Positions 855 through 61,526 of a stretch of 64,000 bases of DNA are shown here, in pieces (position 1 is the stretch's first letter; every line of letters begins with the position of its first letter). Made by a program: the position numbers and the translations under genes. Source of the DNA: an uncultured Candidatus Saccharibacteria bacterium (GTDB taxonomy: Bacteria > Patescibacteriota > Minisyncoccia > SW-4-49-11); the NCBI GenBank assembly GCA_964633865.1, contig CAZWIJ010000002.1, positions 64,628 through 128,627 of the forward strand, read 5' to 3'. The notes beneath the pieces were generated by a model. The model searched no databases. It saw only the letters and a program-made list of their open reading frames with translations, and was not told where the DNA came from.

Positions 855-3800
855 ATGCAAGAGATTATCCAAAATTATCTAAACAATATCCAATCCCTCT
901 ATCAATCAGGCAATGCACGAGAACATGCTTATCGGCCTGCCTTCCAAACCTTGATTGAGAATCTAATCGTTGATATTCAAGTTATAAATGAACCATCTTA
1001 TACTGGTGGAAATGCACCCGACTTTCTTTTCAAAAAAGGAGATATACCTATTGCTTATGCAGAATGTAAAGATATAAATATAGATATCAATTCAAAATCA
1101 GTCCAAGCACAAGCCCAAAGATATGTAGATGCATTTGGTAAAATTTTGCTTACCAATTACTATGATTTCCAAATTATGATAGAAAATCAAGACCCTGTCT
1201 TCTTTTCTATAGCCAAATTAGAAAATAACAAATTTATCTTAGATGAAGAGAATTTAGATCAAAATCTAAATCTACTCCGAGATTATCTCTCCCCAACTCC
1301 TCGTACAATCCGCTCTTCCCAAAAACTAGCCGAAATAATGGCAAACAAAGCAAGAATCCTAAGAGACACAGCCAAAGCTTCGCTTACCGAAAATCCAAAT
1401 TCGGATATTCAAGCTCAATATCAGACTTTCAAACAAATTTTGATAAATGATTTGTCCGAAGATGATTTCGCTGATATGTATGCCCAAACTTTGGTTTATG
1501 GGCTTTTTGTAGCTAGATATCATGATTCTACATTACCAACCTTCTCAAGATATGAGGCTCAAGATCTTTTACCACAGACCAACCCTTTATTAAAAAAATT
1601 CTTTGGTCATATTGCTGGAACAGATTATGACCCCAAAATTGCTTGGTTAGTGGATAGCTTAGTAGAAGCTTATCTTTCTACCAATGTAGCAGAACTAATG
1701 CATACTGAATTTACTAGCAAAGAAAAAGACCCTATTCTACATTTTTATGAGACATTCCTATCCAAATATGATTCCCTATTAAGAAAAAGTCGTGGAGTTT
1801 ATTATACACCCAAAGCCGTAGTCTCTTTTATGGTGAGAGCCGTTGATCAGATTTTACAGGCAAAATTTAATCTTCCACAAGGTTTGGCAGATACCAGTGT
1901 GATTGAATATGAGAAAAAAATTCAAGCAAATGATGCCAGAACCAAAGATAATCTAAAGAAAATCAAAATACAAATTCCCAAAGTCCAAATACTAGATCCA
2001 GCTGTAGGAACAGGGACTTTCTTAGATGAAGTCATAAAACAAATTCATACCAAATTCCGAGGCCAAGAAGGGCTTTGGTCAAGTTATGTCAGTAATCATT
2101 TGATCAATAGACTACACGGATTCGAGCTGATGATGACAAGCTATACAATGGCTCATCTCAAATTAGGTATAACCTTAGACGAGTTAGGTTACAAAGGGAA
2201 AGATAGGTTGTCAGTTTGGCTTACCAATAGTTTGGAAGAAGGTGTCCACGAAGTGCCAAATTTATTTATGTCTCAGTGGCTCACCGAAGAATCCAATCAA
2301 GCTTCCAGAATAAAATCAGAAATGCCGATTATGGTAGTTTTGGGAAATCCACCGTATGCGGTTAGCTCTTCTAATAAAGGAGAATCTATCACAAAACTTA
2401 TTCAAGACTACAAAAAGGATCTGAATGAAAGAAAGATAAATTTAGATGATGATTATATAAAATTTATAAGATTTGCTGAGGATCAAATAGAAAAAACAGG
2501 TTATGGAATAGTCGCTATGATTACCAATAATTCTTTTATTGATGGGATTACTCATAGACAAATGAGAAAACATTTGATGCAGACTTTTGATCAAATTTAT
2601 ATATTAGATTTACACGGAAATTCTAAGAAAAAAGAAACTGCCCCAGATGGCTCAGCAGACCAAAATGTCTTTGATATTATGCAAGGAGTTAGTATCAATA
2701 TTTTTGTTAAAAATAAGAGCGAGTTGCAAAAATTACCCTCCAAAAAAGATTTAGCCGAAATTTATCATTCAGAAATTTTTGGGAAAAGACAAGCTAAATT
2801 TGACTTCCTGAACCAAATCAACTTTAATTCTATCAATTGGCAAAAATTAAATCCTTTAGGACCTTATTACTTTTTTGTACCTAAGGATTTTAAAGATCAA
2901 ATTGAGTATGAGAAAGGCTTTAAAGTTAGTGAATTGTTTGAGGTTAATACAAGTGGAGTAAAAACTCATCATGATAAAGAATTAGTTTCTACTTCAAAAT
3001 TTAATACCGAATATAACTTAAGTTATAACTATAGAGCTTTTGATAATCATTTTATAAATTATGATAGAAATTTAGTTGAAAGAGATAGATATAATGTTAT
3101 GAAACATTTTATCTTAGGTGATAATTTAGGATTAATTTTTAGAAGAACAATAGAAAATACAAAAAATTGGCATCATATACATATTACGAAAAACATGATG
3201 GACATTAATTTTCTATCTGCTCAAACTTATAATTTCCCACTTTATCTTTATACTCAGGCAAGCTCAGCAGAACTTAAGACCTCCTCTCAAACCACCCCGC
3301 CCTTTGGGCACCCCTCCATCGGAGGGGAATTAAAGACCTATTCTAACTCCTCCTTTGGAGGAGAAAATTCCTCTTCTTTGAAGGGGTGGACTGCGGAGCA
3401 GAACGGGGTAGTCAAAAAACCTAATCTAAATCTAGAAATAGTAAAAGAAATTGAGGGTAAATTAGGGTTGAGATTTATTCATGATTTAGAGAATAAACCA
3501 CCCCGCCTTACAGGCACCCCTCCGACGGAGGGGAATAATAACATCTACTCTAACTTCTCCAAAGGAGAAGAAAATTCCCCTTCTTTGAAGGGGTGGCAGT
3601 CGCAGAATGACGGGGTAGTTAGTTCTGAAGATGATAAACCCCAGTCTGTCGGAATAGTTAAAAATGAAACTACTAGAAATACTTTAAACTATAAAAGTTT
3701 ACCTTTTAATCATAAACTACAAGATAGAGCTAAAGAATTAAGAAAAGCAGGTAATTTGGCAGAAGTTGTATTTTGGAATCAAGTTAAATCTAAAAAATTT

Positions 3801-4619
3801 AAAAATTATGATTTTGACCGCCAAAAAATAATAGGAAATTATATTGTAGATTTTTATTGTACAAATTGTAATGTAATTATTGAAATTGATGGAAGTAGCC
3901 ATAATGACAAACAAGAATATGATACAGAAAGAGATTTATATTTAGAAAGTTTAGGACTTACTGTTATTCATATACTAGACACTGATGTACTTAATAATTT
4001 AGATTCTGTAATGGAAATGTTATCAAGTCACCCAGCCTTAGAAAACAAACTAACTCACATTTCAGATACTTCCTCTCAAACCACCCCGTCCTTTGGGCAC
4101 CCCTCCATCGGAGGGGAATTACTAACTTTCACTCCCCTAGATTTACTAGATTATATCTATGCTGTACTCCATAATCCAGACTATAGAGATAAATACAAAG
4201 AATTCCTAAAAATAGATTTCCCAAGAGTTCCTTATCCAGAAGATCAGGAGAAATTTTGGCAACTTGTCAAATTAGGTGGAGAGTTAAGAGAACTTCATTT
4301 ATTAGAGTCTCCCAAAGTGAATGAATATATCACACAATATCCAATTGATGGAGATAATATAGTTAGTAAAGTTAGATTTGAAAAGTCTATTTCTGAAGAT
4401 GTAGGCAAAGTCTATATCAATGAAACTCAATATTTTGATAATGTACCGATTATAGCTTGGGAATTCTACATTGGAGGTTATCAACCAGCTCAAAAATGGC
4501 TAAAAGACAGAAAAAACAAAACTTTATCTATTGATGATATTCTTCACTACCAAAAAATTATTGTTGTTCTTTCAAAAACAAATCAGATTATAGGGGAGAT
4601 AAGTGCGTTGCCGATATAA
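855..4619 (+). CDS. Type IIG/IIL single-chain restriction-modification enzyme (N-terminal PD-(D/E)xK nuclease + gamma-class N6-adenine DNA methyltransferase + TRD), MmeI-like architecture, carrying an in-frame DUF559/Vsr-like endonuclease domain insertion
   Basis: N-terminal D..E.K motif (NAPDFLFKK...IAYAECKD). Motif X G.YYTP (GVYYTPKAVVSFMV). SAM motif I (ILDPAVGTGTFLD). Motif IV NPPY (VVLGNPPYAVSS) about 118 aa downstream, as in MmeI/HsdM gamma-class MTases. 1254 aa. A DUF559 signature (AKELRK...YDFDRQKIIGNYIVDFYC...IIEIDGSSH...RD..LESLGLTVIH) lies inside the C-terminal third. Confidence 0.8.
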   Translation: MQEIIQNYLNNIQSLYQSGNAREHAYRPAFQTLIENLIVDIQVINEPSYTGGNAPDFLFKKGDIPIAYAECKDINIDINSKSVQAQAQRYVDAFGKILLTNYYDFQIMIENQDPVFFSIAKLENNKFILDEENLDQNLNLLRDYLSPTPRTIRSSQKLAEIMANKARILRDTAKASLTENPNSDIQAQYQTFKQILINDLSEDDFADMYAQTLVYGLFVARYHDSTLPTFSRYEAQDLLPQTNPLLKKFFGHIAGTDYDPKIAWLVDSLVEAYLSTNVAELMHTEFTSKEKDPILHFYETFLSKYDSLLRKSRGVYYTPKAVVSFMVRAVDQILQAKFNLPQGLADTSVIEYEKKIQANDARTKDNLKKIKIQIPKVQILDPAVGTGTFLDEVIKQIHTKFRGQEGLWSSYVSNHLINRLHGFELMMTSYTMAHLKLGITLDELGYKGKDRLSVWLTNSLEEGVHEVPNLFMSQWLTEESNQASRIKSEMPIMVVLGNPPYAVSSSNKGESITKLIQDYKKDLNERKINLDDDYIKFIRFAEDQIEKTGYGIVAMITNNSFIDGITHRQMRKHLMQTFDQIYILDLHGNSKKKETAPDGSADQNVFDIMQGVSINIFVKNKSELQKLPSKKDLAEIYHSEIFGKRQAKFDFLNQINFNSINWQKLNPLGPYYFFVPKDFKDQIEYEKGFKVSELFEVNTSGVKTHHDKELVSTSKFNTEYNLSYNYRAFDNHFINYDRNLVERDRYNVMKHFILGDNLGLIFRRTIENTKNWHHIHITKNMMDINFLSAQTYNFPLYLYTQASSAELKTSSQTTPPFGHPSIGGELKTYSNSSFGGENSSSLKGWTAEQNGVVKKPNLNLEIVKEIEGKLGLRFIHDLENKPPRLTGTPPTEGNNNIYSNFSKGEENSPSLKGWQSQNDGVVSSEDDKPQSVGIVKNETTRNTLNYKSLPFNHKLQDRAKELRKAGNLAEVVFWNQVKSKKFKNYDFDRQKIIGNYIVDFYCTNCNVIIEIDGSSHNDKQEYDTERDLYLESLGLTVIHILDTDVLNNLDSVMEMLSSHPALENKLTHISDTSSQTTPSFGHPSIGGELLTFTPLDLLDYIYAVLHNPDYRDKYKEFLKIDFPRVPYPEDQEKFWQLVKLGGELRELHLLESPKVNEYITQYPIDGDNIVSKVRFEKSISEDVGKVYINETQYFDNVPIIAWEFYIGGYQPAQKWLKDRKNKTLSIDDILHYQKIIVVLSKTNQIIGEISALPI
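3282..3332 (+). repeat. GC-rich palindromic repeat R1 copy 1 (tcctctcaaaccaccccgccctttgggcacccctccatcggaggggaatta)
   Basis: near-identical copy at 4080-4130; contains hairpin cccctcc/ggagggg; translated in-frame as SSQTTPPFGHPSIGGEL. Confidence 0.85.
3360..3412 (+). repeat. GC-rich repeat R2 copy 1 (…ttctttgaaggggtgg…cagaacggggtagt)
   Basis: similar copy at 3555-3620; translated as NSSSLKGWTAEQNGVV vs NSPSLKGWQSQNDGVV. Confidence 0.7.
3496..3537 (+). repeat. degenerate R1-like GC-rich hairpin repeat (accaccccgccttacaggcacccctccgacggaggggaata)
   Basis: shares the ccaccccgcc…gcacccctcc..cggaggggaa core with R1 copies. Confidence 0.65.
3555..3620 (+). repeat. GC-rich repeat R2 copy 2
   Basis: aligned by eye to 3360-3412. 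Confidence 0.7.
4080..4130 (+). repeat. GC-rich palindromic repeat R1 copy 2
   Basis: 50/51 identical to 3282-3332. Confidence 0.85.
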
Positions 4620-5215: not shown

Positions 5216-5347
5216 TGAGTCACATAAAATAGTTTATAATTTATCATAGATAAGACCACTGTAGATTGAGTTAGATGTTCCCATCCATAGGTTGGCAAAA
5301 GCTATGATTTATAGATAGAAAGTCTAACCAGAAAAAATCTACAGGGC

Positions 5348-5376
5348 TCTCCCCTCTTAATTGAGGGGTTTTTATT
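5348..5376 (+). terminator. intrinsic terminator hairpin (cccctc-ttaatt-gagggg + T-run)
   Basis: perfect 6-bp GC stem followed by TTTTTATTT. Confidence 0.5.
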
Positions 5377-5456
5377 TATATTATTTTCTCTAAAGAAATA
5401 CATCTTTTATAATTCTTAATGATCCTTATCTTACTATAATATTTTGTTAAGATATA

Positions 5457-5495: not shown

Positions 5496-7460
5496 ATGTA
5501 CTTTCACAAGAGAAAAATTATGACCACTTTACTACCTATTTCTAGTTTCAAATCTCAGATTTTAGATTCAGTTTCTAATAATTCTGTGGTGATCATCACT
5601 GCGGAAACCGGAGCTGGAAAATCAACTCAAGTGCCACAATTCCTAGTGAATTCTGGCTATCGTGTGGTTGTAACCCAACCAAGGAGGCTGGCTGCCACTT
5701 CCGTGGCTGAAAGAGTGGCTGAAGAAATGGGGTGTAAACTCGGAACTTTTATCGGTTATCGTACCGGTGAAGAATCCTGTTGTTCCAATGGCACTCGCGG
5801 GTTATTCGTAACCGATGGGTTACAACTTGTTCGTGAGTTGACCTCTGGAGGTCAGACTGATGTACTAATCATTGATGAGGTTCACGAATGGAACCTCAAT
5901 ATTGAAGTATTAGTTGCTTGGTGTCGTCATCAGCAACAGCTTGGGTCACCTCTCAAGGTAGTGCTGATGAGTGCTACGATGGAGGCGGAAAAGTTGGCCG
6001 AATATTTTGGCAATGCTCCAATAATTTCCGTCCCAGGACGAACTTTTCCAGTGGAAGAAAAACAGGATACAAGTGATTCTGTAGTAGCTAATGTGAAAGC
6101 ATTGGTGGCTGAAAATCGTAATATTTTGGTTTTCCAACCTGGTAAAGCTGAGATTGAAGAGTGTATCTATGAAATTTCTCAAGAGATTGGAGAAAAAGCA
6201 GTCCTATTACCTTTACACGGTAATTTGACTTCTGAGGAACAACATAAAGTTTTTCAAAACTATAACCTTCCTAAGGTTGTAGTTGCCACCAATGTAGCTC
6301 AAACTTCAATCACTATTCCTGACATTGATGCCGTAATTGACACAGGAGTTGAAAGACGGATTGAGTTATCGGACGGTATTGAAGGATTGTACTTGAAAGA
6401 AATTTCTCGTGCAGACTGTATGCAACGAAAAGGTCGTGCAGGCCGAACAAAAGAAGGGATCTATATCTTATGTAGTGAGACTTCTTTGGAGGATCGTAAT
6501 GAATTTCCAAGGTCTGAAATTGAAAGATCTCGTTTGGATCAAATGGTATTGAGACTCGCTGTCGCTGGATTTGATGCCTCAGAGTTAGATTTCTTCCATG
6601 ACCCTGGTCATACCATTATTCTTGAGGCAAAAAGAACATTACAGGTTCTTGGAGCTCTTGATCACGATGGCGAGGTGACTCAGATTGGTCGTCAGATGTC
6701 TCATCTTCCCCTCTCTGTCCAATTCTCCCGTATGGTAGTGGAAGCTGCTCGTTATGGAGTCTTGGATGAAGTCATAACAGTAGCTGCTATTCTTGAAGTT
6801 GGTGGTATCACTGCTCGAGACGGTCGTTGGGGTAAGTTGACCAAAGAGCATGATTCAGATTTATTGGCACAACTTGATGTATATCAAAAGGCATGTGAGT
6901 TGCACAAGTCTGAGTTACATGAAAGCGGGATTTGGGTAAAAAACTTTTACCGAGTAAAAGAGCTTCGTCGTAAGCTCTGGAAATCGGTGAAAGGCTTAAA
7001 ATCCACTCCTCCCATTGTAGATGAAGCCTCTTCTCGTGATATGATCAAAAAAGCCTGCTTAGCAGGCATGGTAGATCATGTATACCAATCACGAGGTCGA
7101 AGACTCTACTCTAATGGAGACTATGTTATGAGACAGATTGCTCGTGAATCAGTAGTTGTCGGCGATGAGATTGTGGTAGGGCTTCCTTTGGACATCCAGA
7201 TTCGCTCTGGCAGAACTCTGAATTTGATTCAGATGGTGACCAAAGTGGATCTAGAAACTCTAAAAGAAGTTGCTCCTCAACTATTCGAGTTTGACGAAAA
7301 CTATACTCAATATGATGTCAGAAATGATGTTGTAAAAAGTCAAGGCTCAGTCAAATTCAATGGACAAGTAATTCAGTCTAATATATCTCAACCTTGTGCT
7401 GACAAAGCCAAGGCTACAGAAGTATTGGCTGAATACTTAGCTTGTCAGACAACTCGTTAA
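5496..7460 (+). CDS. DEAH-box ATP-dependent helicase, HrpA/HrpB-like core (probable true start ATG at 5520)
   Basis: Walker A TAETGAGKST, DEVH box (IIDEVHE), SAT-like (MSAT), QRKGRAGR motif VI; 654 aa; GC content visibly higher than flanks. Confidence 0.85.
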   Translation: MYFHKRKIMTTLLPISSFKSQILDSVSNNSVVIITAETGAGKSTQVPQFLVNSGYRVVVTQPRRLAATSVAERVAEEMGCKLGTFIGYRTGEESCCSNGTRGLFVTDGLQLVRELTSGGQTDVLIIDEVHEWNLNIEVLVAWCRHQQQLGSPLKVVLMSATMEAEKLAEYFGNAPIISVPGRTFPVEEKQDTSDSVVANVKALVAENRNILVFQPGKAEIEECIYEISQEIGEKAVLLPLHGNLTSEEQHKVFQNYNLPKVVVATNVAQTSITIPDIDAVIDTGVERRIELSDGIEGLYLKEISRADCMQRKGRAGRTKEGIYILCSETSLEDRNEFPRSEIERSRLDQMVLRLAVAGFDASELDFFHDPGHTIILEAKRTLQVLGALDHDGEVTQIGRQMSHLPLSVQFSRMVVEAARYGVLDEVITVAAILEVGGITARDGRWGKLTKEHDSDLLAQLDVYQKACELHKSELHESGIWVKNFYRVKELRRKLWKSVKGLKSTPPIVDEASSRDMIKKACLAGMVDHVYQSRGRRLYSNGDYVMRQIARESVVVGDEIVVGLPLDIQIRSGRTLNLIQMVTKVDLETLKEVAPQLFEFDENYTQYDVRNDVVKSQGSVKFNGQVIQSNISQPCADKAKATEVLAEYLACQTTR

Positions 7461-36455: not shown

Positions 36456-37556
36456 TTATTTAATTATATCCAATAAATCTTCAAAGAAATAGGTTTTATT
36501 TCTTTCTTTATTATTATGATGAATAATCAAATTTTGAGATAAATAATGCAAGATACGAAAAGTTGCATCTTTTTTTATTCCCGTTTGCCTTGAAAAATCA
36601 GCAGAGTCAAAAATAGGTACTGAGAATAAGTAATCTAAGACTTTAATAGAATTTTTTGGAGTAGGAATATCAATAATTTTATCTTTTAATTGTTCATATA
36701 GAGCAAGAATTTTTTTAACTTTTTCAATGTTTTTTATGGACTGTTCTTCTACTGCTATAAGAAAAAATTTAATCCAACTTTCCCAATCCCCATTTCTTGA
36801 TATGTTTTGTAGATAATCATAATATTCATCACGATGAAGCTCAAAATACTCACTCAAATAAAACATTGGAGAAGATAGAACTTTTTTGTAATACAAGAAT
36901 AATGGCATTAAAATTCTTCCTGTTCTTCCGTTTCCATCCCAAAAAGGATGAATAATTTCAAATTGAGCATGAACAATTGCAAGTTGAACTATTTGATCTT
37001 TTTCATCAGAATGAATATATTTTTCAAAATTAGAAAAATACTCTGCAATATTTTGTGGTTCTGGTGGAATATAGCTGGCTCCTTCTACTCCCAATCCTTG
37101 TTTTCCAATAAAAACAGAACCTGTTCTAAAATTTCCAGGATTTTTCCCTTCTCCCCTTGTCCCCTTTAAAAGAAGCTTATGTATTTCTTTGATCAATTGT
37201 CCTGTTAAAGGGATTGTTTCGAGTTTTGTAATTGCTACACTCATGGCATGCCTATAATTAATAATCTCTTGAATATCTTCATATTTTTCAGTTTTTTCCT
37301 TTGGGTTGGCATCAAATTGTAAAACTTCTTCAAGAGTTGCTTGAGTCCCTTCAATTTTAGATGATAAAACGGCTTCTTTTGTTGATAGAGGAGATAAAAG
37401 AACTCTTCCATTTGGGATACTTTGAAGAAAAGCATCAAACTTCGCAACTGCTCTATTTGCTGTTCCTATATGAGCAATAAAAATATCCCCATTTAATTTT
37501 TCTAACGGTAAATTATCTGGTTTGAATGGTTTCATATTTTTTAAATTATAAATCAA
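36456..37556 (-). CDS. Fic family protein (AMPylase/Fido domain)
   Basis: canonical Fic motif HPFWDGNGRTGR; 366 aa; located between hsdM and hsdS. Confidence 0.85.
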   Translation of the reverse strand: MIYNLKNMKPFKPDNLPLEKLNGDIFIAHIGTANRAVAKFDAFLQSIPNGRVLLSPLSTKEAVLSSKIEGTQATLEEVLQFDANPKEKTEKYEDIQEIINYRHAMSVAITKLETIPLTGQLIKEIHKLLLKGTRGEGKNPGNFRTGSVFIGKQGLGVEGASYIPPEPQNIAEYFSNFEKYIHSDEKDQIVQLAIVHAQFEIIHPFWDGNGRTGRILMPLFLYYKKVLSSPMFYLSEYFELHRDEYYDYLQNISRNGDWESWIKFFLIAVEEQSIKNIEKVKKILALYEQLKDKIIDIPTPKNSIKVLDYLFSVPIFDSADFSRQTGIKKDATFRILHYLSQNLIIHHNNKERNKTYFFEDLLDIIK

Positions 37557-39661
37557 CTATTCCAAAAACTTAATTTCTGTTCTTTCGCCCATTTTTCAAA
37601 AGCTAATGCTATTTCTCTAAGATCATGCTTTTGAATAAGATGATTATGCTCATCGAGCTTTCTCTCTCCCTTCTCATTGGTTTCATACATTTCTATTCCT
37701 GAATTATCTTTTCCGCTATTCTCACTTACTGCCATGAAAATCTCATAATCCTCTTGTTGTGAATTATAGCTTGGAGAATTAGGATCTTCATCCCATTTTT
37801 GGATAAACAATACTGATGTTTTAGTTCCTGTATGTGGTTTAAAGGTGTTTCCATCTAATCCTACTACTGCCACAAGTCTTGCTTTTTCCATAATAAAGCT
37901 TCTAATCTTTTCATCGCTAGTATTATTAAATCTTCCTTGTGGGAGAACAACTGCCATTCTTCCTCCTTCTTTGAGAAAATCTAGATTTCTCTCGATAAAC
38001 AATACATCTCTTGAGACTTTATTTGCTTTTTTTCCTTTACTGTCAAAAGCGACTTCATAATTCGATATTAATCTACTATCTTTAATATCTCCTGCAAACG
38101 GAGGATTTGCCATTACAATATCAAAATTAAATTCTTTTGGGTTCTGTCGATTTTTTGCTAAATCTAGCATTCGATAATATCCTTCAAGATATGTTTTTGC
38201 CCATGAGCTATCTTTTAGTTTTTCTTCCCATCTTGTATAATCTAGTGTATTCAAATGCAATACATTGGTTTTTCCATCTCCTGCTATCATATTGAGGGTT
38301 CTTGCTACTCGAACAGATTTTTCATCAAAATCAATTCTAAATACTTTATGCACATAATCTTTTTGCTCATTGGTAAGTTTTTGATTAGAAAAATTATGAA
38401 AATTTGCTTTTCCTTGATTGACTAATTTTTGCCATACATTAAATAATGTATGTACAGTAAATCCACAACTTCCACAAGCGGTATCTATCATGTATTCATG
38501 TGATTGTGGGTTCATCATATAAACACACATATCTATAACATTTCTTGGGGTGAAATATTGCCCTTTTTCTCCTTTTGCTGACTTATTGACTAAATATTCA
38601 AATGCTTCATCTATCACCTGCAAATTAGAATTAAAGAGCTTTACATTTTGCAAAAATCCTACACAAATTTGGAGATGGTTTTCATCGGTTATTCTGAGTG
38701 GTTCACCTTGCTCAAAAATTCCTTGCCATTTTGATTTGGCTTTTCTATAGAGTTCATTGATGACTTCTTTTGTATGATGTGCATCTCCACGGCTTCTAAA
38801 TTCTAATTTTCTATAATCTTCATTATCAATTTGTTCGAGAATTTGTTTATCTGTAAGGGTGGGGTTTTGCTTCTTGATAATTTTAAACTGTGTCTCAATA
38901 TTTACCCTATCATCAGCACTTTCCATTTCGTCATAAAGTTTGGTAAATATAAGTTTAAATACTTCTTCAAATACATCAACTCCTGCTCCTGATAAAACTT
39001 CATCTTCTATTTCTTGAATCAAAGATTTAAGAGATTTTCGCTCTTCTGCAAGTCTATCTTTTTGCATAAGCTCAAGATAGGTAAATCGTTCATTCTTTAC
39101 ATCATCAATGGTTTCATGTACTTTTGGAATATCTGAAAGAGGTTCAAAATAATTAGGATCAAGTCTTTCATAATAATCAATCTCTACTCCATTAGTCCAG
39201 ATTGCAAGTGGAGCACCTGTAGCATTGGTATAACTTTTAAGCTGATCTTTTCCATCTTTAGCACTATGTTTTTTAATCTCAAGCACACAATAAATACTTG
39301 TTTTATCCTGTTTGTTCAATATTACAATATCTGCAAATTTCTTTTCTCTTCCAAAACTTACAGTATATTCAACATCCAGTAAATCAACAGAATAACCATA
39401 TTCATTGATAAGTTTATCTAACATTAGTTGTCTCACTATCTCTTCAGGCTTTACTTGGATGTCTTTATTTCTTTTAAGACACTTTAGGAAGAGCTTGTCT
39501 CCTTTTTCAAAAATACTATTTTCAATTTTATCGATACTTTCAGGTGAAAAAATAGTAAGATCATATTTACCATTTGATTTAATAAGTTGTGAAAGTTGTC
39601 TATGAACCATATTTTTTATAATCCTTAAATTTAAACTTACCCCCATTATACCACTTTCCAA
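37553..39661 (-). CDS. hsdM: Type I R-M N6-adenine DNA methyltransferase HsdM with ~200-aa N-terminal restriction-endonuclease-like (HsdR_N/PD-(D/E)xK-like) extension
   Basis: motif X QYFTPRNVIDMCV, motif I IDTACGSCGF, motif IV VMANPPFAGD; N-terminal ADIVILNK…YCVLEIKK nuclease-like motif; 702 aa. Confidence 0.85.
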   Translation of the reverse strand: MESGIMGVSLNLRIIKNMVHRQLSQLIKSNGKYDLTIFSPESIDKIENSIFEKGDKLFLKCLKRNKDIQVKPEEIVRQLMLDKLINEYGYSVDLLDVEYTVSFGREKKFADIVILNKQDKTSIYCVLEIKKHSAKDGKDQLKSYTNATGAPLAIWTNGVEIDYYERLDPNYFEPLSDIPKVHETIDDVKNERFTYLELMQKDRLAEERKSLKSLIQEIEDEVLSGAGVDVFEEVFKLIFTKLYDEMESADDRVNIETQFKIIKKQNPTLTDKQILEQIDNEDYRKLEFRSRGDAHHTKEVINELYRKAKSKWQGIFEQGEPLRITDENHLQICVGFLQNVKLFNSNLQVIDEAFEYLVNKSAKGEKGQYFTPRNVIDMCVYMMNPQSHEYMIDTACGSCGFTVHTLFNVWQKLVNQGKANFHNFSNQKLTNEQKDYVHKVFRIDFDEKSVRVARTLNMIAGDGKTNVLHLNTLDYTRWEEKLKDSSWAKTYLEGYYRMLDLAKNRQNPKEFNFDIVMANPPFAGDIKDSRLISNYEVAFDSKGKKANKVSRDVLFIERNLDFLKEGGRMAVVLPQGRFNNTSDEKIRSFIMEKARLVAVVGLDGNTFKPHTGTKTSVLFIQKWDEDPNSPSYNSQQEDYEIFMAVSENSGKDNSGIEMYETNEKGERKLDEHNHLIQKHDLREIALAFEKWAKEQKLSFWNS

Positions 39662-56813: not shown

Positions 56814-59800
56814 TTACTTACTCCAAACAATATCCATATTATCTAATTTATAATTACTTGGATAATGAGAAAAGTTTTTCTCATTACTAAATGAATAATT
56901 TCCATCTTCATTATTAACTTCTTTATATTTATTTATAGCTTTATCCATAGATTTTTCAAAAATAGTATCTGTTCTATTTGTCCTTATATGTTTATTCTTT
57001 GAAATTGCTATCTTATCAAAATCATTATCTTTAGCAAAATCTATTAAAGTGTTATTTAATTCATTAAATAGTGATTCTTGATCTACAGAATACAAATATG
57101 TACTTGATGGATTATACGATGCTGACAAAATTTTCTGTCCATCTTCATCCTTAAAATGATGTAATAATACTAATCCCACACATCTTTTATTTTCTGGATT
57201 TTGTAGCACTAACTGAAAGTAATTTGGCATATCCCATATATTCTTTTCTCCTTTATCTGGATTACAGCCTGAAACACATACTCCTCCGACCATTCTTGCA
57301 TATGAACTCAAGTCATCTTTATTTATATATCCATTTAATTTCTTTGGTTTTTTCTCTATTTTTTTACCATCTGGATCATAATCTACCATTATAAATTTAT
57401 TGACTTCTGTTTCTATTATCTCATTCTCTTCTTTATACAAATTTGTGACACTTTGTTCTATTAATCTATTAAATAGTTCTTCATCATAAATTCCATCTGA
57501 TGCTGAAATCTTTAGAGCTATTACTTCTTTTAGATTTATATCTCCTAAATGTGTTGTCATCAAATCTTGTTCTTCTCCTGTTAATTGTCTAAATGCTTCT
57601 ACTGTTTTATTTCTCTGTCCCTTTAATCTTCCATAAAATGTCTTGGTATTAGAATCACTAGAGTTTGAGACTTTCTCCTCTAAAAATCCTGTCAGACTCT
57701 CATATCTACTTATAATTTCTCTTACTCTATCTTCTGAATACTTTTCTTCTATTCTTGCTTTTTCTTCTTTTGTACTGTCTTTATTTAACCTTCTTTTAAT
57801 TAAAATATTTCTCATATCTTTTATAAATTTGTCATTTAATCCTAATTTATCTATTTGTAACTTTCCTAATTCTTGTTTTTCTCTAGCTATTCTTTCTCTT
57901 TCTTGATTTTCTTTATATACATTCTCTGTTATCTCTTGAAATATTGGGTTTTGTTTTCCTTTATCTACTATTACATTCTGGGCTTCTTTTATTGTATCTT
58001 TGTAGAATTCTGATAATCCCATTATTTTCTCATAGTCTTTTTCTATTCCTTCTTCCCCATTTTCCTGATATCTTTCTATATTATCCAAATGTGAAAAATT
58101 ATAATACAAAATGCTCTTTTTTATCTCTTCTTCTTTGATTTCTTTATTTAATCTTGAATATAATATTGCTGCATAAATTTTCTCTTCTTGACTGATTAGT
58201 TTTTCTACTTGTATACCTAATTTATTCTCTTCTCCTATTTTTACTATCATTTCTTCTATGATTTTATCCAGACTCTGACTTATTTTTTCTATTCCTCCTT
58301 CATTATATTCTCTCATTATCTCTTCTCTTTCTTTTTCTATTTTTCCCAAATTTTCTTTATCTATTTCTCTTCCTTCTCTTAACTCTAATTTACTTTTGTC
58401 CACTATATTTATTGGGTATTTTTCTTTTATCTTAAATCCTTCTAAATCTTGACTTCTGTCTTGACATGTCTTTACTGATTCATATTTACCATAACTACCT
58501 GCATTATTTGGATATGTATATTCTAATAAATCTTGGAAATATTCTTCATTTCTCTCTTCTTCTTTAACTCCTCCACTTGTCATTCTATCCATTGTATCTG
58601 TAATTTTATCTAAATATTCTGTCTCTTTTTGCTTACTCTTGGCTTCAAGGTATTCTTTTACTATTATTGTATTCAATACTGGAATTCTATTTACTAATTC
58701 CAATATATCTTCATAATTCTCTTCTTTTATGATTCCTTTTTCTTTACACTCTACATATCCCTTGATTAATTCTTTTTCAAGTCCATTATGTTTTTTTACT
58801 AACTTTACTACAAAAGAGTTTTCTTTATTATATTCCTTAAATCCTATTTTCTCGGATAATTTGTAAACTTTCATTCCCTTTTCAGAATATGACTTTATTA
58901 TTATTTCGTTTATTTCTTCAGTATTTTCTTGGAAAAATTCTTCTCTATATCCCACCTCTATGTTATCCCAATAATCTAATTCATCTGTCAAAGAATATAT
59001 ATTTTCTCCTAAAGAAATTTTTATATTATTACTTATTTTCTCTTTATTATTTTGCAAAATTTCTTTATTATAACCAGGTTTTATACTATTCCAATAATCC
59101 AATTCTTCTTCAATATATCTTATATTATACCCCGATAGAAATCTATTTTTCACTCTTTCTTCTATTTTTTCTTTATTTTTTTCAAAAAAATTCTTAGCAT
59201 ATCCTTCCTCTACTCCATCCCAATATTTTAAATCTTGTATCAAATTAGAAGAATTATATTGAGATATCATATTTTCTAACTTACTATTCATTAAATCAAA
59301 ATTATTTCTTAAAAAATTAACTTTGTAACCTTTTTCTATAATTTCCATATTATATAAGATTACATATAATGATTCTAGATTACCTGTACCTTCGTTTAAA
59401 GCATCTTGGATTCTTTGTTCTACAATAAGACTAAAGTCTTCATTGTTAATTATCCCTTCCAAATTTTTAATATCTCTTAAACTTCTTATTTGTGAAATTT
59501 CTATATCCAATTCTTTTTTATACTTATTTTTGAATTCGTCTAAATCTAAAGAACCATTATTAAATAACTCTTTAATTAATCTACGACCATCATGGTCATT
59601 TAAATAGGAAATACTTTCCACAACTTGTAAATAAAATTTCTCTTTAATTTCTTCATTAGGGAATTCTAGTTTTAAATCATTTATTTGAAAATCAATTTTT
59701 AAGTCTACAATGTTTCTGAATAAAGAATTGTCTGTTTTTCCTTTATAAATAATATAATTATTTATTATATTATTTATATCTTCATCAGATAGAGAACTTT

Positions 59801-61526
59801 TATCTATATTAAACTCTCTTTCTACATCTTTATAACTACTTAAATCTGAATATTGACTTACATTTAAATATAATATACTAACAATATCATTATAATTATT
59901 AAGGTATTCTGTATTAAATAAATCATTTTCAGATATCAATTTTATTAAGTTTCTAATATCATTAAATATCCTTTCAGATCTTTCAAATCCGTTTCTATCA
60001 ATCTTTCTTTGGATAAATGAATTTATTTTTTCCTGATTTTCCTCTAAAAATTCTTTCTTATTCAATATTTGTTCTTTTTCTAAGAAGTTAAGAAATTTTA
60101 TGGAGATTTTAATATCAGAAGAAAAAAACATATCTACTATTTTTACATCTATACTAACTTTATTATTAGTATAAAATTCTTTAAAATCCACACCATAAAG
60201 TTGGCTCCATTCTTCAATCTTTTTATCTATATCTATATCTATATCTATAGGATTTATAAATATCTTATCAAAGTCAGAAAACATTGTTTGTATTTTTTCT
60301 TTGCTTAAATCTTGATTTTCATTCTGATAACCAATCTTCTCAAGAAATTTATTTTTATCCGTGGCTAAAAGATTATTGATTACATTTTCTATGTCTTCTT
60401 CTTTATATATTCTATTTAAATTAATATAATTTGTTATATCTTGAATAAGTTCTTCCATTGAAAAATCTTCTTTGTCGGGTAAATTTTTATAATTTTCCTC
60501 TATTTTATCTTTTAAATATGTTTTAAAATGTATGTTCTCAGTGTCATTATATATATTTTCTAAATTAATAAATTCTTTATCTTGAGTTAAAGTATTTTTA
60601 TATATCTTATTAAAAATATTTTCTGAATTAATTTCTTCTTCCATTTTTTTCAACTCTTCTTCTGAAGCAGGCATAATTTCACTTCTCTTCATCCTATCCA
60701 AGCCTGAATAATTTTCTATTATATCATTAGATAAGTGTATCTTGTCCAAAGTGTTATTTAATTTAACAAAATTTATTAAATCTTCTTGTATAGAATCTTT
60801 TGGCAAATCCATTTCATAGATTAAGCTAACTTTGATAGCCTCTAATTTTGAGATTTCAGTGTCTATTTTAATTTTTAAAAGTTCTCTATCTCTTGCTAAA
60901 TCTTTTGTATCCCACATATTTTCTTTTTCTATTGATGTTGGGTTTATTGATTTATAACTCTCTTCTATTTCTTCTATTTTTTTAATCATTAACAAAGCTA
61001 TATTTTGTACTTTTTCTTTAAATTCTTGGAATACTTTTATATTTTTTAAACTTTCTATTAAAGTATTTCTTTCTTCCCTACCTAAATTTGAGGTTGATTG
61101 AAAAAAATCCATACTCTTTTCTTTATCTATTCCTTTTAGAAAAAATAAATTATCTTTTAAATTATCGCTTTCTACTAAACTAGCATAATCTGATTCTTCA
61201 TTATTTTCTTTATCTAAATCCTTTAATTGTTCTTGTAAATCTTGATAGAAATCTATAATTTCTTGTGTAGATTTCTGTAAGTTTTCTATAGAAAATTCTA
61301 AAGATTTTTCTTTATCTTTATTGATTACTGTATTTTCGATTGCTTTTATTATTGGAGAGTTTTGCCTAAAATATTCCCAGATATTTTCTGGTGGTTTGAT
61401 TTTCTCACCTTCAAACTTATCTATTTCAATATTTTCTACTTTACTCTCCTTTTCTGATAAAGTCTCTTGTTTTTTTTCTAAAATTTCTTCCTCACTCCCT
61501 TGATTATAATTTCTAAATTTTTCCAT
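56814..61526 (-). CDS. giant (1570 aa) E/K/N/I-rich repeat-containing hypothetical protein
   Basis: single uninterrupted ORF; three ~35-aa (D/E)L(D/K)YW(D/N).(I/V).(E/P)GY…NKEKI repeats; (ID)n tract encoded by a (TATATC)n microsatellite at ~60225-60250; Cys/His-containing C-terminal globular region. Confidence 0.6.
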   Translation of the reverse strand: MEKFRNYNQGSEEEILEKKQETLSEKESKVENIEIDKFEGEKIKPPENIWEYFRQNSPIIKAIENTVINKDKEKSLEFSIENLQKSTQEIIDFYQDLQEQLKDLDKENNEESDYASLVESDNLKDNLFFLKGIDKEKSMDFFQSTSNLGREERNTLIESLKNIKVFQEFKEKVQNIALLMIKKIEEIEESYKSINPTSIEKENMWDTKDLARDRELLKIKIDTEISKLEAIKVSLIYEMDLPKDSIQEDLINFVKLNNTLDKIHLSNDIIENYSGLDRMKRSEIMPASEEELKKMEEEINSENIFNKIYKNTLTQDKEFINLENIYNDTENIHFKTYLKDKIEENYKNLPDKEDFSMEELIQDITNYINLNRIYKEEDIENVINNLLATDKNKFLEKIGYQNENQDLSKEKIQTMFSDFDKIFINPIDIDIDIDKKIEEWSQLYGVDFKEFYTNNKVSIDVKIVDMFFSSDIKISIKFLNFLEKEQILNKKEFLEENQEKINSFIQRKIDRNGFERSERIFNDIRNLIKLISENDLFNTEYLNNYNDIVSILYLNVSQYSDLSSYKDVEREFNIDKSSLSDEDINNIINNYIIYKGKTDNSLFRNIVDLKIDFQINDLKLEFPNEEIKEKFYLQVVESISYLNDHDGRRLIKELFNNGSLDLDEFKNKYKKELDIEISQIRSLRDIKNLEGIINNEDFSLIVEQRIQDALNEGTGNLESLYVILYNMEIIEKGYKVNFLRNNFDLMNSKLENMISQYNSSNLIQDLKYWDGVEEGYAKNFFEKNKEKIEERVKNRFLSGYNIRYIEEELDYWNSIKPGYNKEILQNNKEKISNNIKISLGENIYSLTDELDYWDNIEVGYREEFFQENTEEINEIIIKSYSEKGMKVYKLSEKIGFKEYNKENSFVVKLVKKHNGLEKELIKGYVECKEKGIIKEENYEDILELVNRIPVLNTIIVKEYLEAKSKQKETEYLDKITDTMDRMTSGGVKEEERNEEYFQDLLEYTYPNNAGSYGKYESVKTCQDRSQDLEGFKIKEKYPINIVDKSKLELREGREIDKENLGKIEKEREEIMREYNEGGIEKISQSLDKIIEEMIVKIGEENKLGIQVEKLISQEEKIYAAILYSRLNKEIKEEEIKKSILYYNFSHLDNIERYQENGEEGIEKDYEKIMGLSEFYKDTIKEAQNVIVDKGKQNPIFQEITENVYKENQERERIAREKQELGKLQIDKLGLNDKFIKDMRNILIKRRLNKDSTKEEKARIEEKYSEDRVREIISRYESLTGFLEEKVSNSSDSNTKTFYGRLKGQRNKTVEAFRQLTGEEQDLMTTHLGDINLKEVIALKISASDGIYDEELFNRLIEQSVTNLYKEENEIIETEVNKFIMVDYDPDGKKIEKKPKKLNGYINKDDLSSYARMVGGVCVSGCNPDKGEKNIWDMPNYFQLVLQNPENKRCVGLVLLHHFKDEDGQKILSASYNPSSTYLYSVDQESLFNELNNTLIDFAKDNDFDKIAISKNKHIRTNRTDTIFEKSMDKAINKYKEVNNEDGNYSFSNEKNFSHYPSNYKLDNMDIVWSK

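Follow-up and report, generated by a model that had tools for sequence, protein, structure and literature searches.

A Vsr-like DUF559 nuclease domain and its flanking DNA hairpin arms in a Type IIG restriction gene of Candidatus Saccharibacteria

Repeat arms and a DUF559 domain in a Type IIG gene

Within a stretch of 64,000 nucleotides (nt) from an uncultured Candidatus Saccharibacteria bacterium (contig CAZWIJ010000002.1, positions 64,628 to 128,627; the whole stretch is called the window below), one restriction gene carries five copies of a GC-rich, hairpin-forming repeat, here called arms, and a DUF559 domain between the last two of them. In the encoded protein the N-terminus is PD-ExK-like; there is also an N6 methylase domain, and the inserts split the Type_ISP_C domain. 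Pfam matches on the open reading frame (ORF) are N6_Mtase, Eco57I, MmeI_Mtase, Type_ISP_C in two separate stretches and DUF559/MTES_1575, and PADLOC matched it in three stretches as PDLC03610 REase_MTase_IIG (E-value 9e-277). The features of a Type IIG enzyme, i.e. a nuclease, a gamma-class N6 methylase and a specificity domain in one fused chain, are present, and the translation shows the motifs DPAVGTGTF and NPPY. A protein identical to all 1254 amino acids (aa) is encoded on 15 contigs from several metagenomes, which rules out an assembly artefact. The features of the locus are as follows.

855..4619, plus strand: host gene, a single ORF for a 1254-aa fused Type IIG restriction enzyme-methyltransferase
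3291..3329, plus strand: R1 arm 1, 39 nt, with the hairpins GCCC/GGGC and CCCCTCC/GGAGGGG; read as TTPPFGHPSIGGE; 66.7 bits with the covariance model
3330..3365, plus strand: spacer of doublet 1; CTCCTCC-TTT-GGAGGAG forms its central hairpin at 3347-3363
3366..3412, minus strand: R2 arm 1, of the R1 type but inverted, its first hairpin being longer; read as SSLKGWTAEQNGVV; closes doublet 1
3413..3496, plus strand: host segment between the inserts, KKPNLNLEIVKEIEGKLGLRFIHDLENK; outside the element; GC 25%
3497..3535, plus strand: R1 arm 2, in another frame, read as PPRLTGTPPTEGN; hairpin 1 variant GCCT/AGGC; 63.9 bits
3536..3572, plus strand: spacer of doublet 2; central hairpin at 3554-3570
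3573..3619, minus strand: R2 arm 2, inverted, directly 5' of DUF559 and thus the left arm of the cassette; read as SPSLKGWQSQNDGVV
3620..4040, plus strand: linker and DUF559 domain; homology region 3675-4040 (aa 941-1062)
4068..4118, plus strand: 12-nt flank ACTTCCTCTCAA and R1 arm 3, the arm at 4080-4118 being read as TSSQTTPSFGHPSIGGE; right end of insert 2

A first-pass annotation of this DNA had described three copies of a repeat R1 and two of a second repeat R2 in one ORF, and all five are recovered here. The R1 core GGCACCCCTCCNNCGGAGGGGAA lies at 3307, 3513 and 4096 (none expected by chance from 100 shuffles) and the R2 core at 3375 and 3582 (0.08 expected), and a repeat finder returned 54-nt copies at 3279-3332, 3485-3538 and 4068-4121, the last of them 96% identical to the first, together with 80-nt copies at 3333-3412 and 3540-3619. 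A covariance model built solely from R1 copies of other genomes and then run on the window matched the three R1 arms with E-values of 1e-15 to 1e-17 and, on the minus strand, both R2 arms with E-values of 6e-9 (arm 2) and 5e-6 (arm 1, 3366-3420); with this model, the window holds no arm other than these five and no second DUF559 gene. Judged by the minus-strand matches, R2 is not the separate family it had been taken for but an R1-type arm in inverted orientation, whose first hairpin is longer. The range first assigned to the repeats, 3282-3620, covers two doublets of such arms and misses the third R1 arm at 4080-4118.

Each doublet, composed of R1, a spacer and R2, is a nested palindrome of ~121 nt (3291-3412 and 3497-3619). 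As first described, the 7-bp hairpin CCCCTCC/GGAGGGG of R1 is perfect; whole doublets also fold better than shuffled sequence (z-scores of -3.4 and -3.9). The central hairpin of doublet 1 and that of doublet 2 (CTTCTCC/GGAGAAG) differ by a compensatory change, and hairpin 1 likewise differs by a compensatory substitution between the two doublets. The reported read-through also holds, all five arms being translated without stops in the ORF 855..4619, with copies 1 and 2 in different frames (GHPSIGGE, GTPPTEGN).

The 85 nt between the doublets (3413-3496, KKPNLNLEIVKEIEGKLGLRF...) encode a host motif, R.PNLN.EIV..I..LGL.F, that is conserved in all homologs. This stretch is thus host sequence, and the gene contains two separate in-frame inserts. 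Insert 1, a doublet lacking the nuclease, lies in the loop that follows the FPLYLY motif; insert 2, composed of doublet 2, DUF559 and the terminal R1 arm, occupies the next variable loop before F.P.D.LDYIYAVLH. In R1 copies 1 and 3, the adjoining 12-13 nt, which lie outside the family consensus, are alike, and this indicates duplication or gene conversion within the host gene.

The DUF559 domain of insert 2 (aa 954-1055, Pfam E-value 5.7e-29) is a Vsr-like PD-(D/E)XK nuclease that keeps all 18 invariant residues of the family, and its nearest solved structure is PDB 3hrl (E-value 5e-17). The domain is AT-adapted, with a GC content of 25% and a GC content at third codon positions (GC3) of 0.10. 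The arms are 65-68% GC (GC3 0.6-0.75) in a host gene with a GC3 of 0.22-0.25. The last 12 nt of 3620..4040, CACCCAGCCTTA (HPAL), are what is left of the canonical right arm's 5' end after drift towards AT. Because this remnant, constrained solely as a peptide, drifted to AT, the intact GC-rich arms are either of recent origin or preserved by selection or conversion acting on DNA or RNA.

The arm family and its link to DUF559

Is the arm a peculiarity of this gene? A scan of one genome per species with the pattern GGCACCCCTCNNNNNGAGGGGAA gave at least 120 arm loci across many bacterial phyla. The hosts among the matches listed include Flavobacterium, Pedobacter, Bacteroidales, Chlorobiaceae, cyanobacteria, Serratia, Pseudomonadales and Clostridium, as well as Planctomycetes, Verrucomicrobia, Fibrobacteres, spirochaetes and Rickettsiales, and several metagenome-assembled genomes contributed more than one of the listed loci. 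Lineages rich in arms include Flavobacterium, Pedobacter, Chlorobiaceae and rumen alphaproteobacteria whose QueA carries inserts. The consensus of ~40 nt, ACCACCCCG-CCCnnnGGG-CACCCCTCC-nnn-GGAGGGGAA, describes two adjacent hairpins. An upstream extension, CCACCCCGCCC, (A)CCACCCCGCCCnnnG, is not specified by the pattern yet occurs in nearly all listed matches, which shows that the arms are homologous and not chance matches.

The stems covary. At the one base pair that the pattern leaves free, 117 copies have C-G, 13 have T-A and 8 are unpaired, with ~1.7 T-A expected if the two positions were independent, and the stem of hairpin 1 occurs in the compensated variants GCCC/GGGC, GCCCC/GGGGC, GCCGC/GCGGC and GCCT/AGGC. 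Overall, 17 cells are altered on both sides versus 2.5 in shuffles, a count that none of 500 shuffles reached. Searched at the gathering score for the window and in E-value mode for eight loci with consensus copies, Rfam contained no family that matches the arms; a sub-threshold match to mir-491 was dismissed as a generic hairpin match.

Arms occur solo, as palindromic doublets, in tandem arrays and as cassette flanks. The loci contain 27 outward doublets with a spacing of 9-86 nt, and inward pairs without an ORF, 54-147 nt apart, also exist. Head-to-tail amplification is possible as well: tandem arrays of up to six arms with a period of 42-49 nt (locus L144, 2402-2634; also L141, L163, L178 and L081) are translated as repeated peptides such as TTPPVEGNKPPWSS. 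At two further loci (L204, at the C-terminal site of a QueA gene, and L040, 4431-4493) an extra palindrome, e.g. CCCACGGAATTGTGAAATTCCGTGGG, is nested in the loop of hairpin 1, which thus tolerates large insertions.

Arms and DUF559 are mutually linked. Their canonical unit of ~0.45 kb runs from an inverted arm over ~45 nt to DUF559 and, after ~5 nt, to a second arm; DUF559 is the sole ORF between the arms of a cassette, and the domain's conserved C-terminal NHPAL is read from the right arm's 5' end (AACCACCCCGCCCTT). Starting from the arms, we found a DUF559 gene at 23 of the 120 listed loci, always 3-188 nt from an arm and encoding a protein 50-73% identical to the DUF559 of the window. For the reverse test, 80 metagenome loci were picked solely by DUF559 peptide motifs and an arm was sought within 400 nt: it was present upstream in 67 of 75 cases, downstream in 64 of 73 and on both sides in 52 of 68, and it was lacking on both sides in one. 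Per side, this amounts to about 89% of the DUF559 loci, at a background of 0.16 arms per kb. A SPPLEGWQxKxDGVV arm, as in R2 arm 2, precedes DUF559 at many other loci, and at some loci (L101, L104) the upstream arm is direct instead of inverted. The repeats are thus neither unique to this locus nor missing beside other DUF559 genes, and their first description as elements similar to repetitive extragenic palindromes (REPs) or MITEs (miniature transposable elements with inverted repeats) that tolerate translation is supported, with the addition that they are constant flanks of DUF559 genes.

What is conserved in the arm is the DNA. Different proteins use all three forward and all three reverse frames of the same arm, giving forward readings such as TTPPFGHPSxGGE, PPRPSGTPPxEGN and HPALRAPLQRRG and inverted readings such as FPSxGGVPEGRGG, SPPLEGCPxGGVV and IPLLWRGARRAGW; since one arm DNA yields many peptides, the conserved object is the DNA and not the peptide. 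The use of three frames, the compensatory stem changes and the GC content kept in an AT-rich genome all show this conservation at the DNA level. Only 18% of the arms lie in frames with 50 or more open codons on each side, versus 60% of random positions, and arms elsewhere are mostly intergenic, so that translation is tolerated and not the rule. Nevertheless, 24 of 100 cassettes are in frame within long host ORFs, namely of HsdR, HsdS, several methylases, Type IIG enzymes and QueA, and none of the 100 lies antisense between two ORF halves. Arms free of stops in all six frames make up 61%, versus 33% of composition-matched shuffles.

Among homologs of the host protein, arm peptides are present in 30 of 33 that bear DUF559 (mean 2.7, at recurrent positions) versus 1 of 87 that lack it. 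In an AlphaFold model of aa 600-1254, the predicted local distance difference test falls below 50 only at the arm-coded aa 802-856, 879-943 and 1068-1088, and the host helix between the inserts and the DUF559 fold are confident (75-93; DUF559 81-93). The model hence predicts that the arm-coded peptides are disordered and link the folded domains of host and DUF559.

Solo arm peptides occur in further members of the Type IIG family (P0078, P0080, P0101, P0115, P0116, P0119 and others) at about aa 126, 450-480 and 1150-1225, and these recurrent positions mark permissive loops or preferred targets. In an HsdR gene (L145, SDBV01006722.1), a GIY-YIG nuclease domain (…VYAILCSNDAIYIGQTSDLRKRWKQH…) stands in frame in the same loop as a DUF559 cassette and just after it; this loop may be a hotspot for selfish nuclease insertions.

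Presence and absence of the inserts in related genes

The single DUF559-less homolog with an arm peptide is P0031, encoded at locus L219, a close-relative ortholog with the same neighbouring genes. The two loci were compared with BLAST and by eye. The DNA of L219 is colinear with the window at 82.5-88% identity (88% in the host segment 3413-3496) and lacks both inserts, the missing stretches being window 3267-3408 (insert 1) and 3478-4148 (insert 2), and its ORF is intact. L219 carries a 39-nt solo arm at a third site, which is empty in the window, and no DUF559 was found on its 6-kb contig. This solo arm matches window 3289-3332 at 44 of 44 positions, loops included, in a gene that has diverged by 17.5%.

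The host protein itself is a mosaic. In sliding windows, aa 1-575 are closest to DUF559-less, Patescibacteria-like proteins (identity 0.75-0.89, versus 0.3-0.6 for the DUF559-bearing clade, which is largely Bacteroidota). From about aa 576 the DUF559-bearing clade matches equally well or better, which places the switch near aa 575-625, with the methylase half on the Patescibacteria-like side and the Type_ISP_C half on the side of the DUF559-bearing clade. P0031 has the same C-terminal type without a cassette. A recent donor of the C-terminal module was sought and discarded, the best match being just 49% identical. The idea of an independent insertion at the site used in distant homologs is weakened by this mosaic and partly revived by the empty ortholog L219.

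A second series of related genes shows the same variability. Among alphaproteobacterial QueA genes with 82-85% aa identity, both the presence and the site of the cassette vary: the N-terminal site alone is occupied in L212, the C-terminal site alone in L203 and L115, and L204 combines an N-terminal cassette with a C-terminal solo arm. In L214, everything between the two sites is deleted, with the junction inside the left arm. This gene (metagenome Ga0310690_10218026) joins QueA codons 1-32 to the ~90 C-terminal codons via one DUF559 cassette whose left arm is of the C-site type, and it resembles the product of a deletion in which the left arms of two cassettes recombined. Together with the flank common to window copies 1 and 3, the L214 junction suggests that the arms act as recombination substrates. 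Closely related genes thus differ in whether and where they carry arms and cassettes, and cassettes occur in at least eight unrelated gene contexts as well as at intergenic sites. The initial proposal of a recombination substrate that mobilises the cassette fares well as regards the substrate, whereas the mechanism by which the cassette moves is one that we infer.

The window as a whole has a GC content of 28.5% and carries cellular genes (DnaE, TypA, aminoacyl-tRNA synthetases, SufB). A phage origin was discarded on the grounds of this gene content and of the mere 13 arm-bearing stretches among 2.9 million viral contigs. The cassette of Serratia had no match in 5,426 complete E. coli genomes. 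Serratia microhaemolytica ZS-11 encodes a standalone DUF559 (L033, 3193-3558). A second gene of the restriction-modification type (37553-39661, minus strand; HSDR_N_2, N6_Mtase and Eco57I, 702 aa) is without arms or DUF559. A 1570-aa ORF without a Pfam match (56814-61526, minus strand) lies where GC skew and AT skew are both strongly negative. A DEAH/HrpA-like helicase gene (5496-7460, plus strand; GC ~0.41 versus ~0.28 around it) was possibly acquired horizontally, and just 5' of it the intergenic stretch 5308-5377 is 97% identical to L219 over 70 nt.

Interpretation and comparison with known systems

Taken together, these loci show a mobile, DNA-level, pan-bacterial element family with hairpin-forming arms linked to a Vsr-like nuclease, of which the solo arms, doublets and tandem arrays appear to be non-autonomous derivatives or remnants. 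For the window, our preferred reading, to which we give a probability of roughly 0.6, is that the Type IIG gene holds two in-frame insertions of one small selfish family of this kind, whose DUF559 nuclease probably acts on the hairpin arms. The arms would be the cis-acting ends of the cassette, DUF559 would recognise or cut either the arms or empty targets, and the cassette would spread via break repair or recombination. Since the arms are mostly stop-free and encode Gly/Pro/Ser-rich linkers, a sense, in-frame insertion into a surface loop would leave the host protein intact, and selection would then retain just the sense, in-frame copies in permissive loops. The Vsr/DUF559 clade includes a proven homing endonuclease, I-Bth0305I (PMC3424549), and phages carry Vsr-like homing endonucleases (bioRxiv 10.1101/2022.08.31.505936).

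Several points weigh against this reading. Any action of DUF559 on the arms is putative, and since all five arms of the window lie in one gene, so is activity of the element in this genome. We know of no PD-(D/E)XK nuclease that transposes on its own. The comparison with L219 does not distinguish a gain in the window from a precise loss in the ortholog, and neither in this comparison of filled and empty sites nor in the QueA series, the host loops differing, was a clear target-site duplication or an excision product seen. Given the mosaic host protein, the cassette may have come together with the C-terminal module and not by an insertion of its own. Finally, the lack of stop codons in the arms is partly a by-product of their GC richness.

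Two other accounts take the association at face value and explain it differently. The arms could be independent repeats of the REP or MITE type, moved by another enzyme such as an IS200-type transposase of the REP-associated tyrosine transposase (RAYT) kind, with DUF559 as a passenger or preferred neighbour. This would fit the roughly four fifths of the listed arm loci that have no DUF559 within 8 kb, the doublets and tandem arrays that form without it, and the solo arm of L219. However, we consider a passenger role unlikely, because arms stand at a fixed distance on each side of about 89% of the genes of this DUF559 subfamily, the right arm overlaps its conserved C-terminal codons, and the arm is conserved across phyla along with DUF559 (50-78% identity), unlike the species-specific REPs; moreover, no transposase was noticed by the cassettes, though no systematic screen was made. 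Alternatively, DUF559 could be a fixed, functional accessory nuclease domain of restriction enzymes, the repeats being peptide linkers conserved for protein reasons. The combination of Type_ISP_C with DUF559 is indeed very common (well over 100 proteins, always at the same site), the domain in the window is folded in the predicted model and complete in its invariant residues, its deep AT amelioration implies long residence, and the C-terminal module resembles the DUF559-bearing clade. Such a role does not explain why one arm DNA is read in different frames as unrelated peptides, why third codon positions within arms are GC-rich amid genes with a GC3 of 0.1-0.25, why identical cassettes stand alone and in unrelated genes (in QueA at two sites), or why the closest ortholog, L219, has an intact ORF without the cassette. 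As an account of the whole family it seems to us quite improbable; the host may have co-opted the cassette later.

Regulatory explanations are far less probable. If the inverted arms were sites of programmed inversion, a flip of the cassette would bring stops into the restriction gene and act as a phase-variable on/off switch, and both the inverted orientation of the arms around DUF559 and the 14-fold enrichment of 'DUF559 domain-containing protein' among predicted targets of programmed inversion (PMC9881135) point in that direction. The absence of antisense cassettes between ORF halves (0 of 100, versus 24 in sense), the lack of a recombinase gene adjoining the cassette in the window, the direct upstream arms at L101 and L104 and the intergenic position of most cassettes make a switch of this kind very improbable. 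A comparably slim chance remains for hairpins that act as RNA, i.e. as terminators, stabilisers or RNase III sites that regulate DUF559 expression, and not as ends of a mobile element. Stable, covarying hairpins fit RNA as well as single-stranded DNA, and a cassette's left and right arms could base-pair to form a single long stem. Against this stand the empty Rfam search, the location of arms within long translated ORFs, in which termination would ruin the host gene, and the solo arms and doublets scattered without any DUF559; the polymorphism of sites between orthologs would in any case need mobility at the DNA level.

To our knowledge, no function is known for DUF559, a very large family of proteins for which a structure (3hrl) has been solved. 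The double-hairpin DNA of ~40 nt that flanks about 89% of the genes of one subfamily is a concrete and synthesisable candidate substrate, and full-text literature searches found no description of a repeat-flanked or mobile DUF559. Should the link hold, a new nuclease class would join the few enzymes that partner short hairpin repeats. In that case, the selfish element proposed here would also account for many unusual peptides rich in Gly and Pro (FPSxGGVPEGRGG, SPPLEGCPxGGVV, GTPPxEGN, TTPPFGHPSxGGE) and for the frequent splitting of restriction-modification genes in gene calls, and would provide a natural route by which a whole folded domain, linkers included, is inserted into proteins such as restriction enzymes, methylases and QueA. 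It may further account for the DUF559 genes flagged as inversion targets in the published screen (PMC9881135).

How does this family relate to known systems? The nearest likeness is to REPs, their inverted doublets (REPINs) and RAYTs (PMC3116915, PMC3337134), which share short GC-rich hairpin repeats, inverted doublets around a spacer, a single nuclease-type gene flanked by repeats, many gene-less copies and a mostly extragenic location. Here, however, the gene is a Vsr-like PD-(D/E)XK DUF559 and not an IS200-like HUH tyrosine transposase, the arm is conserved across phyla whereas REPs are species-specific, and gene and arms form an insertable cassette, including in frame inside genes. MITEs have terminal inverted repeats and a small size like the ~121-nt doublets, but a parent element with a recognised transposase is lacking in our case, with just DUF559 between the arms. 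Rickettsia palindromic elements (PMC10969869; PMC1779305) are palindromes of 100-150 bp that are translated within protein genes without disruption, as surface or loop peptides; by description, they are without an autonomous gene and confined to Rickettsia, whereas the present arms are GC-rich, pan-bacterial and tied to a nuclease.

Vsr-like or EDxHD homing endonucleases (I-Bth0305I, PDB 3r3p; PMC2677866; bioRxiv 10.1101/2022.08.31.505936) belong to the same clade of the nuclease superfamily (PMC3424549) and are likewise small selfish nuclease genes that invade conserved genes. They reside in introns, inteins or intergenic DNA, are either excised from the host protein or never part of it, and have no conserved hairpin arms, whereas the nuclease of the DUF559 cassette stays within the host polypeptide. 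For a homing endonuclease gene proper, the cassette has the right clade and an intact core, but its many unrelated sites argue against a single homing site. Inteins with a homing endonuclease are also selfish in-frame nuclease insertions whose presence varies among orthologs; in the present case Hint splicing domains are missing, the insert stays in the protein and the flanks are DNA hairpin repeats. Indeed, an intein or an intron was rejected for the window, with no Hint domain in Pfam and no intron RNA in Rfam. Each analogue thus fails on a defining feature, be it the RAYT gene, the MITE transposase, the Hint domains or the single homing site. We therefore speculate, at somewhat less than even odds, that this DUF559 subfamily is the dedicated nuclease of pan-bacterial double-hairpin mini-elements, with the arm as its recognition structure and, since the arms also serve as flexible linkers free of stops, the cassette as a natural device for domain insertion, and that it forms a second partnership of the REPIN/RAYT kind, built on a Vsr-like fold.

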